Assembly: GCA_019721035.1 (NCBI GenBank)
Contig: JAHEAA010000002.1
Span: 76,020-140,019 of the forward strand
Length of the DNA stretch: 64,000 nt
Origin: Candidatus Sysuiplasma acidicola
GTDB taxonomy: Archaea; Thermoplasmatota; Thermoplasmata; Sysuiplasmatales; Sysuiplasmataceae
Direction: 5' to 3'
Shown here: piece by piece, positions 21,790 to 57,094 of the stretch
Layout: each line of letters opens with the position of its first letter
Numbering within the stretch: position 1 is the first letter of the stretch
Notes under the pieces: generated by a model
Told to the model about the DNA's origin: nothing
Seen by the model: the letters and a program-made list of their open reading frames with translations, nothing else
The model's database searches: none
Made by a program: the position numbers and the translations under genes

Positions 21790-21874
21790 GCAGGGATAAC
21801 CAAGCTTGGCCAAAGGTGCCAGATTCAGGGTCTGGTTGCGCAGGCATTCGGGGGTTCAAATCCTCCTCCCTGCA
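21790..21874 (+). tRNA. tRNA-Leu (anticodon CAG), type II with long variable arm
   Basis: Hand-folded cloverleaf: acceptor GCAGGGA/TCCCTGC, 3-bp D stem ACC/GGT, anticodon stem CCAGA/TCTGG with loop TTCAGGG, long variable arm, T arm GGGGG-TTCAAAT-CCTCC, discriminator A. CCA is not encoded. Confidence 0.8.
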
Positions 21875-21949
21875 CCGTTATTGGTGCTCAAAGTTCAAGT
21901 CATGAAAACGGCGAAGAGTACAGGGACCGGTGCAAAACCAGTGTAACTA

Positions 21950-22702
21950 ATGAGATATGCTGATATGTTCACTATAGAATTCAGGGAATATATTCATGAA
22001 AGAATCCTGGAATTTGCAAAGGCAGACAAACGAATAAGTCAAGCGGCTCTGGTTGGTTCTACCTCAGAAACGCCTGATCGCTGGTCAGATTTGGACATCA
22101 CGTTTGGCGTTTCCTCAAAATCCAACATTGAAGATGTACTGCGGGATTGGACATCGCATTTTGAATTTGTATTCAACGGGGTTTCACTATTCGACATTAC
22201 ATACAAAAGTTCAGTGTATATGGTGTTTATTCTTCCCGGTGGCCTTCAAGTTGATATCTCTTTCACTCCAGAATCCGACTTCGGTCCCCATGGACCCAGG
22301 TTCAGACTGTTATATGGTAATGTGAATAAAAGAATCCTTCACGAGGAGCCAGATCCAAAGCGTATGTTCGGGATGGCTGTACATCATTTACTAAGAACGC
22401 GTGTTTGTCTCGAACGCAGGAAAATTTGGCAGGCGGAATACTGGCTAAGCTCAGCCCGAAACGAACTCTTGTCCATTATCTGCATTAACCACAAATTACC
22501 TTACTCGAATGGAAAAGGATATGATAAACTGCCAAAAGAAGTGGTGGATTCTTTCACTCCAGCCTTTCCAAAATCACTAAACGGGATTGAATTGTGCATG
22601 GCCTTAAAGATTCTGATAGAAAACATCCCTAACAACAAGGAATTTTCACTGTTCTTGACTCAAAGGTTGGAAAACATATTGAAAGAGTTGATATCATCGT
22701 GA
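21950..22702 (+). CDS. Nucleotidyltransferase-domain protein, ANT(6)/Lnu-like (aminoglycoside/lincosamide nucleotidyltransferase fold)
   Basis: LVGSTSETPDRWSDLDITFGV matches the GS-x(n)-[DE]-x-[DE] minimal NTase motif of the KNTase/ANT(6)/Lnu families, followed by an all-helical C-terminal domain. The gene is clearly lower in GC than its neighbours. Confidence 0.6.
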   Translation: MRYADMFTIEFREYIHERILEFAKADKRISQAALVGSTSETPDRWSDLDITFGVSSKSNIEDVLRDWTSHFEFVFNGVSLFDITYKSSVYMVFILPGGLQVDISFTPESDFGPHGPRFRLLYGNVNKRILHEEPDPKRMFGMAVHHLLRTRVCLERRKIWQAEYWLSSARNELLSIICINHKLPYSNGKGYDKLPKEVVDSFTPAFPKSLNGIELCMALKILIENIPNNKEFSLFLTQRLENILKELISS

Positions 22703-22801
22703 GCGGTCACTCTTACACTTTTCCAACTTGAGCAGATATGCTAATAACCGAAATGAAATTTTGATTTGTTAAAAGATGCGAAGATCGGCCGCAAGTTGTA
22801 G

Positions 22802-22886
22802 TGCGGAGGGCCGGATTTGAACCGGCGAACCCCTGCGAGACAAGACCCTCAATCTTGCGCCGTTGACCATGCTTGGCTACCTCCGC
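22802..22886 (-). tRNA. tRNA-Leu (anticodon GAG), type II
   Basis: Reverse strand: acceptor GCGGAGG/CCTCCGC, D stem GCC/GGC, anticodon stem CAAGA/TCTTG with loop TTGAGGG, long variable arm, T arm GCCGG-TTCAAAT-CCGGC, discriminator A. Confidence 0.8.
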
Positions 22887-22997: not shown

Positions 22998-23963
22998 TCA
23001 GTTCAAGTGCAGATTCCTGTCTCCTTTTTTTGACCGGAACTGCAAATTTACTATCATATCGGACACCATGCCCGGCATGTCAAATTTCGGGTTAAATCCC
23101 CATTCTCTAACTGCGCATGTTGAGTCGACGGAAGCGGGCCATGAATCGGCAATTTTCTGTCTTCCGTCAGGTGAGTACTTTGTTGTAAAATCGGGAAAAT
23201 GTTTCTGGAGCTCCTTTTCGAGTTCTGCCGGAGTGAAATCGAATGCAGCCACGTTGAAATCTGTTCTATGTGTCAGACCAGAAGCAGGCGCTTCTGCTAT
23301 GTTTACAAGTGATTCTATTGCGTCAGGCATATACATCATTGGAAGCCTGGTGTCATTTTTAAGGAAACATTCATAATTGCGGCTGGAAACAGCTGCTCGT
23401 ATCATCTCTATCGCGTAGTCTGTCGTTCCACCGCCGGGTGCAGTCTTGTAGCTTATTATGCCAGGAAATCTCATGCCTCTGGCGTCAATAAGGCCCCTTC
23501 TGCTGTAATATTCACAGAGTTCCTCGCAGAAAAGCTTCGTTATGCCGTATATCGTCGAGGGCCTGGTGACGGTGTCCACTGGCACATTGTTTTTTGGTGT
23601 CGTGGGTCCGAACACTCCTATTGTGCTAGGCAGAATAAATCGCTCTACGCCGGAATGCATGGCCGCGTCGAGCACGTTTTTTGTACCGATAAGATTGACA
23701 TTGAATGCCAATTCGGGTTGCTCTTCTCCCCTTGCCGAAAGCACTCCCGCGAGATGAAACACAACTGTAGCAGCTGTGTCTGAGAATGTCCTGAAGACCG
23801 ACGGCCTGTCCGTGACGTCGAGGGAAACGAACTCACAGTGAGTGTCAGCAGGCTTTTTTATGTCGGTCGCCACAACGTTTTCACTGCCGTACCGAAGACA
23901 AAGTTCCCTGACGAGCTCGGAACCTATCTGACCGCATGAACCTGTAACAATTATTCGTTTCAT
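22998..23963 (-). CDS. tdh: L-threonine 3-dehydrogenase, SDR/UDP-galactose-4-epimerase-like type
   Basis: Start MKRIIVTGSCGQIGSELV (GxxGxxG); extended-SDR core with YxxxK (YGITKLF). It is divergently paired with kbl, the classical tdh-kbl arrangement. The supplied ORF has 33 extra N-terminal codons. Confidence 0.8.
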   Translation of the reverse strand: MKRIIVTGSCGQIGSELVRELCLRYGSENVVATDIKKPADTHCEFVSLDVTDRPSVFRTFSDTAATVVFHLAGVLSARGEEQPELAFNVNLIGTKNVLDAAMHSGVERFILPSTIGVFGPTTPKNNVPVDTVTRPSTIYGITKLFCEELCEYYSRRGLIDARGMRFPGIISYKTAPGGGTTDYAIEMIRAAVSSRNYECFLKNDTRLPMMYMPDAIESLVNIAEAPASGLTHRTDFNVAAFDFTPAELEKELQKHFPDFTTKYSPDGRQKIADSWPASVDSTCAVREWGFNPKFDMPGMVSDMIVNLQFRSKKGDRNLHLN

Positions 23964-24047
23964 CAAACTCACACGTGCAACAAGAAACAGCCTTGCGGGG
24001 AGTAGCATTGAGAACTTATTTAAGCCTACTTCGGCTACGCAACTGCT

Positions 24048-25232
24048 GTGACAAAAAACCATCCATGGATAGCTGAAGAACTGAAGGGAATCAGGGATGC
24101 CGGACGATACGTACCCATCAGAGCGCTGCAGTCACCGCAGGGAGCATGGGTCACCATCGGCAGGAGAAAATTACTGAATCTCTGCTCAAACAACTATCTT
24201 GGCTATGCCAACCATCCTGAGGTGAAACGCGCCGCGATAGATGCAATCGAAGCGTATGGTGTCGGTGCAGGTGCTGTGAGGAGCATTGCCGGGACGTCGG
24301 AACTTCATGTAATGCTTGAAGAGGAGATTGCGTCGTTTAAACACATGGAGGCAGCACTCGTGTTTCAGGGTGGCCTGCTAGCTAACGCCGGCACCATTCC
24401 TGTTCTGGTCGGCAAGGATGATGTAGTGTTCAGCGAGGAGCTGAACCATGCGAGCATCATCGACGGCGTAAGATTGAGTTCTGCGAAGCGTATTGTTTAC
24501 AGGCATGTGGATGTGGAGGATTTGGGAAGACAGCTGAACCAGCACAGATCAGATGGAAAGAGATCCCTCATCATAACAGACGGTGTGTTCAGCATGGACG
24601 GGGACATTGCGCCGCTCGACAGGATCGCTCAGCAGGGCATGGACTCTGACTCAATGATATATGTTGATGACGCTCACGGGGAAGGTGTTCTGGGAGACCA
24701 CGGTCGTGGCATAGTCGATCATTTCAGCCTTACAGATCGTGTCGATGTGGAAATGGGCACATTTTCAAAGGCAATTGGAAGCATGGGAGGCTTCGTAGCC
24801 GGTTCATCCGAATTGATAGAACTTCTGAGACAGAGATCTCGCCCATTCCTCTTCAGCAGCGCGCTGAATCCCGGGGATGCAGCCGCAGTTCTCAAATCGA
24901 TTCAGCTCATGAAATCAGATGATTCGCCGCTCAGACGCCTTTGGGCTAATTCGGGATCTCTGAAGTCCGGGTTGAGGGCTGCAGGGTATGACACAGGCAA
25001 TAGCAAGACTCCAATCACTCCGGTCATGATAGGGGATGAAAAGAAAACTGTGGAGCTTAGCAGGGTTCTGTATGAGGAGGAATCACTTTTCGCCTCCCCA
25101 ATTGTGTATCCGACAGTCGCGCCCGGGGCTGCAAGAATCAGACTGATGCCGTCTTCTGTTCACAGCGACGATGACATCAGATTTGCGATTGATGCGTTCC
25201 GCGCAGCAGGCTCAAAGCTTGGACTTGTCTGA
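24048..25232 (+). CDS. kbl: 2-amino-3-ketobutyrate CoA ligase (glycine C-acetyltransferase), alpha-oxoamine synthase family
   Basis: PLP-dependent AONS-family motifs (NNYLGYANHPEV, DDAHGEGVLGDHGRG, GTFSKAIGSMGGF) plus tdh adjacency. Confidence 0.85.
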   Translation: MTKNHPWIAEELKGIRDAGRYVPIRALQSPQGAWVTIGRRKLLNLCSNNYLGYANHPEVKRAAIDAIEAYGVGAGAVRSIAGTSELHVMLEEEIASFKHMEAALVFQGGLLANAGTIPVLVGKDDVVFSEELNHASIIDGVRLSSAKRIVYRHVDVEDLGRQLNQHRSDGKRSLIITDGVFSMDGDIAPLDRIAQQGMDSDSMIYVDDAHGEGVLGDHGRGIVDHFSLTDRVDVEMGTFSKAIGSMGGFVAGSSELIELLRQRSRPFLFSSALNPGDAAAVLKSIQLMKSDDSPLRRLWANSGSLKSGLRAAGYDTGNSKTPITPVMIGDEKKTVELSRVLYEEESLFASPIVYPTVAPGAARIRLMPSSVHSDDDIRFAIDAFRAAGSKLGLV

Positions 25233-25352
25233 ACTCTCGCGCATGAGCATTCCAAGGATGCAATACATTGTTGGCATAAGGTGCAACGTGCCTGCTGGAA
25301 TACCGATGTGTCTACGCAAAGATTATTACCGTTCAGGAGAATGCGAGTCCTG

Positions 25353-25650
25353 CCAGGAGAAGAAGGGCGGCCGACGGTAGCCATCTCAGGATGGCAGCTG
25401 AGGAAAGTCCCCTCTCCAGAGAAAGGTGGCCTGTTTAAACGCAGGGGGGCGAGAGCCCCGGCAAGGGCGCAGAAACGACACAGCCAGGATGCAGAATGAT
25501 TCGCCCGGCGATGACGTTGTCCTGGATTTGATGAAACGGCGACACCCCATCGGAGCAAGTCCAAATGGCCGGCATTTCTCAAATCCGGCAGGTAGGACGC
25601 ATTAGTCGAATGCTGCCTGAAACAGAAAGGGGCTTACTACCTTCACCTGG
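25353..25650 (+). ncRNA. rnpB: Candidate RNase P RNA
   Basis: Universal P4 5' motif GAGGAAAGUCC at 25400..25410 and the P4 3' motif ACAGAAAGGGGCUUA at 25622..25636. The two strands are complementary, including the conserved U-G wobble (AAGUCCC / GGGGCUU). P2 is GGUAG (25376..25380) / CUACC (25637..25641). P3 is a hairpin CCAUC-UCAG-GAUGG immediately 5' of the P4 motif. There is candidate P1 pairing between 25353..25361 and 25642..25650. The exact ends are uncertain. Confidence 0.55.
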
Positions 25651-25733
25651 CTCTGTTGAGCTGATGTCAAGCATAAGATTTATTAAGGCAAGATTATTTA
25701 TTCTATTAACATAATATTGAGTTGGGTCAGGAA

Positions 25734-25865
25734 ATGGAAAAATGCGAGCGCTGCAAGAAGCGGTTCGACACGCCGCTCAAACTGTACATACATTTGGTTG
25801 AGAAACATGAAGTGACCGATGATGAGGCCAGAAGGATTTCATGGCCCAAAGGAGCATTGCTCTAA
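25734..25865 (+). CDS. Small C2H2-type zinc-finger protein (43 aa); not in the supplied ORF track
   Basis: ATG at 25734; translation MEKCERCKKRFDTPLKLYIHLVEKHEVTDDEARRISWPKGALL gives C-x2-C-x12-H-x4-H. An A/T-rich TATA-like block (25697..25718) lies 17 to 38 bp upstream. Confidence 0.45.
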   Translation: MEKCERCKKRFDTPLKLYIHLVEKHEVTDDEARRISWPKGALL

Positions 25866-25878
25866 ACGCGAATGACAT

Positions 25879-27108
25879 TCAGGACTCCAGCTTGAAATTC
25901 AATCCTTTTCTTCTGAATGAATCGATCAGTTTGTCGAGATGAAGGCTGTCTTCCACCTCGACAACGATCCTTGCGCGGAATCTGTTCAGTACTTCGGTCG
26001 AAATGCCTGAACTCTCCTGAAGGCTCATTACGGTGGCTCCGCCTTCGGCAATCAGATTCAGAGCGTCGCGCATCGCGCCGGGCCTGTCAGGTATGTCAAA
26101 TTCAATGGCTGCAATCCTCCTGTGCATAATCATCCCCCTCATGATCATCTTCCTCACCAGACTCAGATCAACGTTTCCTCCGCTCAGGACGAGACCGACT
26201 CTCTTCCCCTCTACACTGAGCTTTCCGGAAAGCAGTAGTGCAAGAGTCGCGGCTGCGGCTCCCTCCACGAGCAGTTTCGAACGCTCCAGCAGCATGAACA
26301 TCGCCTCTGTTATCTCGTCCTCGCTGACTGTATATATGGCATCGACAAGCCTGGAGACTATGCTGAAGGCCAATTCGCCGGGTTGTTTTATGGCAATGCC
26401 GTCGGCTATCGTTTCCCCTGCTTTCCCCCTGACTATTCTTCCTTTCCTGAGCGATTCTGCGAACGCGGGCATCGCGGCACTCTGGACACCGACTATATGT
26501 GTACCGGGACTGAGCTCCTTCATCGCGACAGCCACGCCAGAAATCAGGCCCCCTCCACCAACCGGAACAATGAGATAATCAAGGTTTCTGTTCTCCCTCG
26601 CGATTTCCATGCCGAGTGTACCCTGTCCTGCGATGACCAAAGGGTCGTTGTATCCGTGAACAAACGTTAATCCGCGCTGCTTCTGAATTTCTATCGACTT
26701 CGAGAGCGCATCGTCGAACGAAGCACCGTGGAGCACGACATCAGCCCCGTAGCTCCTTGTTGCAGCAACTTTGGCCAGCGATGCGTACTGCGGCATGACG
26801 ACAACGCTCTTTATGCCGTTAAGTGTCGCTGATAGCGCAACGCCCTGTGCGTGGTTGCCGGCCGAAGCTGTTATCACGCCGCGTTCCTTCTGTTTTGCAG
26901 TCATATTGTATATCTTGTTGTATGAGCCGCGCATCTTGAACGATCCTGTACGCTGCAAATTTTCCATTTTAAGAAAAACGGTGCATCCGAACTTTTTTGA
27001 ATAAGAGGAGGAAGTGTCAAAGGGGGTTTTGCTAACGACCCGACTCACTATGTCAGATGCTTTCTCGATATCGTCGAACCGGACGGTCTTGCCCTGTGCA
27101 GCAGTCAT
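25879..27108 (-). CDS. ilvA: Threonine ammonia-lyase (threonine dehydratase), PLP-dependent, with C-terminal regulatory domain
   Basis: PLP lysine motif GSFKMRGSYN, glycine-rich loop GGGGLISGVA, 409 aa with an ACT-like C-terminus. Confidence 0.85.
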   Translation of the reverse strand: MTAAQGKTVRFDDIEKASDIVSRVVSKTPFDTSSSYSKKFGCTVFLKMENLQRTGSFKMRGSYNKIYNMTAKQKERGVITASAGNHAQGVALSATLNGIKSVVVMPQYASLAKVAATRSYGADVVLHGASFDDALSKSIEIQKQRGLTFVHGYNDPLVIAGQGTLGMEIARENRNLDYLIVPVGGGGLISGVAVAMKELSPGTHIVGVQSAAMPAFAESLRKGRIVRGKAGETIADGIAIKQPGELAFSIVSRLVDAIYTVSEDEITEAMFMLLERSKLLVEGAAAATLALLLSGKLSVEGKRVGLVLSGGNVDLSLVRKMIMRGMIMHRRIAAIEFDIPDRPGAMRDALNLIAEGGATVMSLQESSGISTEVLNRFRARIVVEVEDSLHLDKLIDSFRRKGLNFKLES

Positions 27109-50455: not shown

Positions 50456-51124
50456 TCAGACGGCTGTGACGGCGTCCCGAACGCCTGTGGATGCATAAAT
50501 TACCGCATGATCCTTCTCGAAGGCAGATATGTCCAGCATACCTGAATGAACGCCAAGCGCACTGTTCACACTCTTACGCGCCAGGGCATAAACGTGTTCG
50601 GGCGACGCAGCCGAGTCTATGCTGCGTGCTTTAACGACCAGAAAGAGTGATTTGAGTGAGCGGAAATACGACGCATTTTTGATGAATATTTCGACGCTAT
50701 TGCCCTGTGCGATGTCCTGGTAGAGCACATCCGGATCGCCTGCTATCGCCGCGTACTCTTCCGGCCTTGATGCATCGGCAAGCACTGGAATCATATTCGG
50801 GTGGTGGCTGGCGACCTCAGCCAGCCTTGCATAGGATGTGAATGATATTTCGACGCAACATACCCTGCCTGAGGGCACAATATCGGCCACGTGACTCGCC
50901 GTCGTGCCGGTTGAGGCACCGAGATACAGCACATTGCTATGTTTGCTGAACGGAAAAAAAGTGCCACCTCCTGCGAGGAAGGCGGCAAGCTTGCTCCTGT
51001 ACGGATCCCATTCCCGGTATTCCCGGCCATTTGATGTGATGAGCTGCTGTCTGGCCAGCTTCCAGCCGGGAGAGCTGTTTAGTGTAAATAACTTCCCGTC
51101 AAACTTTGAAACAGTTTCTTCCAT
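50456..51124 (-). CDS. flpA: Fibrillarin-like rRNA/tRNA 2'-O-methyltransferase
   Basis: VLYLGASTGTTASHVADI SAM motif, EWDPYRSKLAA, 222 aa. Confidence 0.9.
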   Translation of the reverse strand: MEETVSKFDGKLFTLNSSPGWKLARQQLITSNGREYREWDPYRSKLAAFLAGGGTFFPFSKHSNVLYLGASTGTTASHVADIVPSGRVCCVEISFTSYARLAEVASHHPNMIPVLADASRPEEYAAIAGDPDVLYQDIAQGNSVEIFIKNASYFRSLKSLFLVVKARSIDSAASPEHVYALARKSVNSALGVHSGMLDISAFEKDHAVIYASTGVRDAVTAV

Positions 51125-56993: not shown

Positions 56994-57094
56994 GCGCTGA
57001 GGGGGAGATTTGAACTCCCGAGTCGCAGAGCGACACCGGCTTTCCTGAGAGATTCTCAAGGCCGGCGCCTTGAACCGGGCTTAGCTACCTCAGC
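56994..57094 (-). tRNA. tRNA-Ser (anticodon UGA) containing a 13-nt intron at the canonical 37/38 position
   Basis: Reverse strand: acceptor GCTGAGG/CCTCAGC, discriminator G, D stem GCT/GGC, anticodon stem CCGGC/GCCGG, loop CUUGAG|intron|A with a bulge-helix-bulge-like TGAGA/TCTCA helix. Long variable arm GTCGC-TCT-GCGAC. T arm GGGAG-TTCAAAT-CTCCC. The 5' end overlaps the pheT stop codon. Confidence 0.7.

Follow-up and report, generated by a model that had tools for sequence, protein, structure and literature searches.

Genes and features at the locus

We analyzed a stretch of 64,000 nucleotides from Candidatus Sysuiplasma acidicola (referred to below as the window), and in particular the sequence between kbl and ilvA. 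The kbl open reading frame (24048..25232, + strand) matched the NCBIfam equivalog model NF005394 for glycine C-acetyltransferase with 477 bits (cut-off 460). The ilvA open reading frame (25879..27108, - strand) matched the equivalog model TIGR01127 for threonine ammonia-lyase with 458 bits (cut-off 379). An earlier reading of the sequence (the original prediction) had named these two flanking genes correctly. It had also described a gap of about 650 bp with no credible open reading frame. The size was right: 646 bp separate the kbl stop (25232) from the ilvA stop (25879). However, the gap is not free of reading frames. A small C2H2-like open reading frame of 43-47 aa starts at 25734 (or at a TTG at 25722), ends at 25865 (+ strand) and is an annotated gene on public contigs. 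The truly non-coding stretch is therefore approximately 25233..25721 or 25733, and on four public contigs no gene is called within 25233..25721. The product of the small open reading frame (25734..25865) has a C-x2-C-x12-H-x4-H pattern and a weak match to zf-C2H2_4 (E = 0.0023).

By exact-protein look-up we found the same locus in GCA_019721095.1, in GCA_021798215.1 and in two ENA metagenome assemblies. In all four (L081-L084), the sequence corresponding to 25301..25720 is 100% identical to that of the window, while the flanks differ at 7-23 of 7185 positions. One of the contigs, L084, matches the window only to the right of 22802, the exact 3' end of a gene for tRNA-Leu(GAG) (22802..22886, - strand); positions 1..1754 of L084 contain different genes to the left of this point. 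The window and L081-L083 have there a 250-aa open reading frame (21950..22702, with a weak nucleotidyltransferase match) between two tRNA-Leu genes. This difference between L084 and the window (21790..22886) is an insertion or a rearrangement at the strain level, and its breakpoint coincides with a tRNA gene.

A gene of the SDR/epimerase family (22998..24062, - strand) is divergent from kbl, and the two mechanical open reading frames overlap by 15 bp. It may encode an SDR-type L-threonine dehydrogenase, the partner of Kbl. If so, this gene, kbl and the downstream ilvA would make up a small threonine-catabolism neighborhood.

The tRNA genes of the window were not all recovered by a single program. 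The gene for tRNA-Leu(GAG) scored 51.8 bits in a scan of 1.5 kb and was found by ARAGORN, but was missed in the Rfam scan of the whole window at the gathering threshold; in large scans, even a well-scoring tRNA can be lost to the speed filters. Conversely, a class II tRNA at 56995..57094 (- strand) was detected by Rfam and missed by ARAGORN. It has a long variable arm and a 16-nt insertion in the anticodon loop, and can be read as a tRNA-Ser(UGA) gene that contains an archaeal intron. Among genomes, the Kbl protein has its nearest relatives in Oxyplasma meridianum (71%), a Thermoplasmata MAG (69%), a Thermoplasmataceae MAG (66%) and Cuniculiplasma (65%). From the intron-containing tRNA and these Kbl relatives we assigned the host to the archaeal order Thermoplasmatales, a context that fits the identification of the RNA described below.

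Match to the archaeal RNase P RNA family

RNase P, a ribozyme found universally, processes tRNA precursors by trimming their 5' ends. We found that the region downstream from kbl matches the Rfam 15 model for archaeal RNase P RNA, RF00373, with 192.2 bits (gathering score 84; E = 1.3e-55) in a scan of the whole 64-kb window. The alignment is untruncated and spans positions 1-288 of the 288 positions of the model. At the gathering thresholds, this was the only ribozyme match in the window and it occurred once. The Rfam scan keeps the best member of a clan and suppresses matches of related models in the same clan; the best-scoring member of clan CL00002 here was RF00373. Thus, the archaeal model outscored the bacterial, nuclear and minimal-type models. 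The match was identical in all four public contigs.

The original prediction had claimed an archaeal-type RNase P RNA gene and had proposed a search with this model; the full-length match bears it out. Motif reading by itself had placed the gene at 25353..25650, within 2 nt of the Rfam boundaries (Table 1). Two signature motifs had been noted, and both are present and unique: GAGGAAAGTCC at 25400..25410 matches once in the window (0.03 matches expected) and ACAGAAAGGGGCTTA at 25622..25636 matches once (0.00 expected), also when one mismatch was allowed. Their starts are 222 nt apart, slightly more than the 220 nt claimed.

Based on these results and those below, we are nearly certain that the sequence at 25355..25648 (+ strand), possibly extending to 25352..25651, encodes the RNase P RNA subunit (gene rnpB/RPR) with archaeal type A architecture. 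The boundaries are constrained by the promoter-like box described below and by the ends of P1, which may be 3 bp longer (GCC at 25352-54 with GGC at 25649-51).

Table 1. Positions of the RNase P RNA gene, its helices and conserved motifs, and the upstream box
Feature	Position	Strand	Remarks
Putative archaeal promoter (BRE + TATA box), GCAAAGATTATTACC	25316..25330	+	~25-36 nt upstream of P1
RNase P RNA gene, type A	25355..25648	+	RF00373; 25352..25651 with possible longer P1 (GCC/GGC)
P1	25355..25365 / 25637..25648	+	99.9% of cells paired; 6/9 pairs compensatory
P2, GGCGGC / GCUGCC	25366..25371 / 25612..25617	+	99.8% paired; 6/6 pairs compensatory
P3 hairpin	25375..25400	+	11 bp, one A.A mismatch, UCAG loop
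CR-I, GAGGAAAGUCCCC	25400..25412	+	RF00373; P4 5' strand 25405..25412
P5, CUCC / GGAG	25414..25417 / 25552..25555	+	98.4% paired; 3' strand fixed by fetch pattern
P6 pseudoknot, GAGAAA (J5/7) / UUUCUC (P16 loop)	25419..25424 / 25575..25580	+	6 bp
P7	25425..25429 / 25547..25551	+	95.7% paired; 4/5 pairs compensatory
P8 hairpin	25430..25445	+	5 bp; P8 and P9 form two hairpins in 103/108
P9 hairpin	25446..25459	+	GAGA (GNRA) tetraloop
P10/P11	25460..25468 / 25539..25546	+	P10 100% paired
CR-II, CAGAAACGAC	25470..25479	+	Half of T-loop anchor; A117-G123 invariant in 108 sequences
P12 hairpin	25481..25530	+	Single kink-turn; one long hairpin in 106/108
CR-III, GAUGAAACG	25530..25538	+	Second half of T-loop anchor; RF00373
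P5-P15 linker CAA	25556..25558	+	Central A25557, the 'A anchor'; invariance set by fetch pattern
P15	25559-62 / 25595-98	+	100% paired; P15-L15-P16 unit 25559..25598
P16	25568-72 / 25585-89	+	96.4% paired; 5/5 pairs compensatory
L15 GGU (G237 G238 U239)	25591..25593	+	Invariant in 108 sequences, outside fetch pattern
CR-V, ACAGAAAGGGGCUUA	25622..25636	+	P4 3' strand 25629..25635

Conserved regions and helices of the RNA

Using the Rfam alignment, we assigned positions in the window to the structural elements of the RNA, and we added the P4 and P6 pseudoknots (Table 1). The strands in CR-I (GAGGAAAGUCC) and CR-V (ACAGAAnGGGGCUUA) form the long-range helix P4 with its conserved uridine, and CR-II (AGAAACGA) and CR-III, both present, flank P12. 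The P4 strands are mutually complementary, as had been claimed, with 7 bp whether the uridine is bulged or forms a U.G pair. The conserved uridine, U54 (25408), is presumably the catalytic, metal-binding U. The original prediction described it as a universal U-G wobble. Its conservation holds, but the wobble reading needs correction, since the equivalent uridine in bacterial RNase P (U69 in Escherichia coli) is bulged. All P4 columns are invariant, so covariation does not separate the two registers. A uridine in stem P4, at the active site, is conserved universally (PMC6565675).

Several hairpins that had been pointed out in this region are parts of the structure. The claimed P3 hairpin is real. 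The hairpin GCCGG-12nt-CCGGC is also real and is P16; it lies at 25568..25589, one base away from the position given for it (25569..25590). The claim concerning P2 did not hold up. GGUAG (25376-80) and CUACC (25637-41), which had been assigned to P2, are complementary in this RNA, but only 42.8% of cells were paired in homologues and there was no covariation (score 0.012 vs 0.013 for shuffled alignments); the complementarity is due to chance. GGUAG is part of the P3 5' strand, and CUACC is part of the P1 3' strand. By standard nomenclature the helix directly 3' of CR-V is P1, and, in agreement with the Rfam consensus, the P2 3' strand precedes CR-V. The true P2 is listed in Table 1.

P3 of this RNA is 26 nt long (11 bp); it is 15 nt in 100 of 108 homologues. 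The long P3 extends, in a lineage-specific way, a helix that is in contact with proteins in RNase P enzymes of other kinds. P11 has just two standard pairs, together with a G.G and a G.A, and was paired in 59.7% of cells in homologues. Minimum free energy folding of the single sequence was not significantly better than that of shuffled sequences (z = -1.62) and recovered only P3, P8 and P9. Such a weak result is expected for a pseudoknotted ribozyme.

Covariation among homologues

Gene order around the RNase P RNA gene is not conserved. Among the loci around Kbl homologues, kbl was adjacent to the RNA only on the contigs of the same species (L081-L084); an Rfam scan did not find the RNA beside kbl in the Oxyplasma, Cuniculiplasma, Thermoplasmataceae Bin_77, YP3.bin60 and L060 loci. 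The original prediction had proposed that a lack of conservation of the intergenic sequence in related genomes would speak against the gene. This would have misled: the adjacency to kbl is absent from other Thermoplasmatales genera, but the RNA itself is conserved at other places in relatives of those genomes. Because synteny gave no divergent homologues, we scanned metagenome contigs instead, with a pattern of three blocks (CR-I, GGAGCAAGUCC and CR-V). The scan yielded 120 loci with 110 distinct RNAs that were 57-73% identical to the RNA in the window. The MAFFT alignment that we analyzed (alignment A1) has 108 sequences, the window RNA and 107 homologues.

The homologues support the fold; the original prediction had proposed a covariation analysis as a check. 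In the canonical structure 86.6% of cells were paired, compared to 75.7% in column-shuffled alignments and 36-48% when the pairing partners were slid. Compensatory changes, with both sides of the pair altered, occurred at 58 of the 78 proposed base pairs. The covariation score was 0.335; it was 0.146 for shuffled alignments (none of 500 shuffles reached 0.335) and at most 0.145 for slid partners. P1, P2, P3, P10 and P15 were paired in 99.8-100% of cells, and the outer 4 bp of P3 were paired in 100%, three of them with compensatory changes. The fetch pattern fixes the columns of CR-I, GGAGCAAGUCC and CR-V, so that the invariance of P4, of the 3' strand of P5, of the 5' strand of P15 and of the CAA linker is partly built in. 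CR-II, CR-III and the L15 GGU are free of the pattern and were invariant or nearly so, including A117-G123 of CR-II.

Plain MAFFT alignment blurs the variable hairpins (P6 was paired in 57% of cells, P8 in 78%, P9 in 72% and P12 in 63%), and we replaced it for these helices with alignment-free tests. In 103 of 108 sequences (73 of them distinct) the P8/P9 region formed a pair of neighboring hairpins, and in 106 of 108 (97 distinct) the P12 region formed one long hairpin. P6 in the window RNA has 6 bp; 4 of 200 shuffles did equally well. Its complementarity is kept with differing sequences in different clades: GAGAAA/UUUCUC, UCUGGAC/GUCCAGA, GCCGGGCA/UGCCCGGC, CGAUGC/GCAUCG and CAGCGC/GCGCUG. 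The longest duplex between J5/7 and the P16 loop averaged 5.4 bp, compared to 3.9 bp with shuffled loops.

Some homologues differ from the window RNA in their details. In three of the four closest ones (70-73% identical; L173:1420-1712, L114:1671-1960 and L149:4111-4408) the P16 loop is not complementary to J5/7, and in two of these three the loop is very short, 6-7 nt. Unlike the window RNA, these three RNAs seem to have no P6 pseudoknot. The J2/4 spacer, from the 3' strand of P2 to ACAGAA, is 11-15 nt in 94 of the 108 sequences, which are marine homologues (loci L085-L204, for example L197:2114-2418). Most of these spacers fold into a mini-hairpin that is usually capped by a GNRA loop (for example AGCCGAAAGGUGA). 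The spacer is just 3-5 nt in the window RNA and its nearest relatives.

A putative promoter and the state of the gene

Upstream from the RNA there is a box (Table 1) that looks like an archaeal BRE plus TATA element. The homologues have an AT-rich box at -33..-28, with an A+T content of 0.80-0.93 at -32, -31, -29 and -28 (106 homologues), and an upstream motif is recognizable in them as AAAG(G/A)TT(T)ATTA. The box AAGATTATT occurs again at 25690..25698, upstream from the small zinc-finger open reading frame; there were two matches where 0.37 were expected. The RNase P RNA gene most likely has a BRE/TATA promoter of its own, at ~25316-25330, from which it is transcribed. Judged from its distance to the box, the transcription start would be near 25350-25352, where a P1 of maximal length begins. 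We saw no clear oligo-T terminator 3' of the gene.

It is conceivable that the sequence is a decayed, non-functional extra copy, or that the motifs occur together by chance. P11 contains two non-standard pairs, P1 and P3 have one mismatch each, and there could be a second copy elsewhere in the genome, as our comparison covered the window. Several observations argue against decay or chance. The match to RF00373 is full length with a very low E-value, the conserved regions are all intact, with CR-II and the GGU invariant, and the RNA has its own conserved promoter-like box. In addition, the RNA locus is identical in the four independent public assemblies while its flanks differ. The sequence of P10/11 is the same in the closest relatives and is thus a trait of the lineage and not a sign of decay. 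We consider a decayed copy or a chance combination very improbable, although of the alternatives to a functional RNase P RNA of archaeal type A it is the one that survives best.

Structural type

As the next alternative, the RNase P RNA encoded here could belong to a different class, which would be archaeal type M, the minimal type T/P, or a bacterial type A or B acquired by transfer. CR-I, CR-V and P4 are common to all of these classes, so the two motifs of the original prediction cannot by themselves tell the classes apart. The rest of the structure does. P8, P16, the P6 pseudoknot and the L15 GGU are all present, and the specificity domain (P7-P12 with CR-II and CR-III) is complete. P13 and P14 are absent and there is no room for them, as P12 leads through the 9-nt CR-III directly into the 3' strand of P11. 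There is also no room for P18, which is absent, in the 13 nt between the 3' strands of P15 and P2. Archaeal RNAs resemble bacterial type A but are without P13/P14 and P18; type M is additionally without P8, P16, P6 and the L15 recognition loop, and the Pyrobaculum type is without the specificity domain (PMC4919922). This combination of present and absent elements is that of archaeal type A. The features of the window RNA argue against each of the other classes in turn, as does the top score of RF00373 within its clan, and we regard a different class as even less probable than a decayed copy.

The RNA shares with the archaeal type A RNAs (RF00373; for example those of Pyrococcus furiosus, Pyrococcus horikoshii and Methanothermobacter) helices P1-P12, P15 and P16, the P4 and P6 pseudoknots, CR-I to CR-III, CR-V, the L15 GGU and a kink-turn in P12, as well as the lack of P13, P14 and P18. 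It differs from them in some respects. Its P12 is short and has one kink-turn, whereas the RNAs of Thermococcales, Methanococcales and Methanobacteriales have a double kink-turn (PMC5499556). No kink-turn was evident in P16-17 of the window RNA. P3 is longer than in most of the homologues that we collected (26 nt and 15 nt, respectively), and P11 has just two standard pairs.

Type M RNAs (Methanocaldococcus jannaschii and Archaeoglobus; cryo-EM structure, PMC6565675) have the same catalytic core, with the P4 uridine and the 3-nt P5-P15 linker with its central A, and also the same CR-II/CR-III T-loop anchor; the same protein partners would be expected. They are without P8, P16, P6 and the L15 loop (PMC4919922), all four of which the window RNA has. 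The type A RNAs of bacteria (RF00010; M1 RNA of E. coli and the RNA of Thermotoga maritima) have the same plan of catalytic and specificity domains, the P4 and P6 pseudoknots and the L15 GGU, which pairs with the 3' RCCA of tRNA. In contrast to the archaeal RNAs, which need 4-5 proteins, they have P13, P14 and P18 and one small protein (RnpA). RNAs of type T/P (Pyrobaculum and relatives) share the catalytic domain and P4 but are without nearly the whole specificity domain, which is complete in the window RNA.

The weakest alternative, that the stretch is protein-coding, is effectively refuted: a 140-aa open reading frame (25160..25582, - strand) and a 72-aa one (25281..25499, + strand) overlap the gene and do exist mechanically, but neither has a Pfam match even at a cut-off of E = 0.01, the 140-aa frame overlaps the 3' end of kbl, public gene calls leave the region empty, and substitutions among homologues follow the compensatory pattern of base pairs.

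Discussion

There is nothing of substance in our results that speaks against an RNase P RNA gene between kbl and the small zinc-finger gene. In archaeal RNase P, the interleaved T-loops of CR-II and CR-III stack on the tRNA T and D loops, and base pair 1-72 is where the A in the middle of the 3-nt P5-P15 linker stacks (PMC6565675). Two Mg2+ for leader hydrolysis are coordinated by the P4 region, to which the conserved uridine belongs (PMC6565675). The T-loops, the linker A and the P4 uridine are all intact in the window RNA. The RNA has a catalytic domain made of P1-P5 and P15/P16, with the CR-I/CR-V P4 pseudoknot and the P6 pseudoknot, and a specificity domain made of P7-P12 with the CR-II/CR-III T-loop module. 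By homology to the solved RNase P structures, this module would stack on the elbow of the tRNA, and the A in the middle of the CAA linker (P5-P15) would stack on the first base pair of the acceptor stem. P4 and the uridine at 25408 would position two Mg2+, and the bond 5' of tRNA nucleotide +1 would be hydrolyzed, removing the leader.

The L15 GGU can pair with the 3' RCCA of tRNA (PMC4919922). The window has three tRNA genes, and a 3' CCA is encoded in none of them: they are followed by CCG, CTA and CCC (from 21875, 22801 and 56994, respectively). The contact between the L15 GGU and RCCA would thus need prior addition of CCA.

In the cell, the RNA would probably be part of a ribonucleoprotein with Pop5, Rpp30, Rpp21, Rpp29 and L7Ae. 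The kink-turn in P12 is well formed and consists of G25494, the bulge AAU (25495-97), the G.A/A.G pairs of 25498-99 with 25513-14, and C25515. Its signature is kept in homologues, while the flanking closing pair switches between G-C and C-G. By analogy to other archaeal RNase P RNAs, this kink-turn is likely a binding site for L7Ae (PMC5499556). No gene for an RNase P protein was found among the 26 open reading frames of up to 260 aa in the 64-kb window, so the genes for these partners are probably elsewhere in the genome. The window does contain a gene for fibrillarin (50456..51124, - strand; Pfam E = 7e-57), the methyltransferase of C/D-box sRNPs. L7Ae, the partner common to the fibrillarin sRNP and RNase P, was not found in the window.

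It is possible, though we would not bet on it, that the window RNA is a mildly reduced variant of type A: its P12 is short and has a single kink-turn, its P16 has none, its P11 is degenerate and its P3 is extended. If so, the stoichiometry of the proteins or the contact between P3 and protein may differ from the Pyrococcus and Methanocaldococcus models, with perhaps one copy of L7Ae compared to two or three elsewhere. Such a variant would still be a known ribozyme, with a nuance specific to its lineage, and not an element of a new kind.

As a housekeeping gene, the RNase P RNA gene is routine and already known, and it is no discovery. Its family, structural types and mechanism are well described, including by cryo-EM structures, and it raises no new biological question. 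The value of the finding is in annotation. That is, an essential RNase P RNA gene is now placed on the genome map, and it explains ~500 bp between kbl and the small zinc-finger gene that had no annotation.
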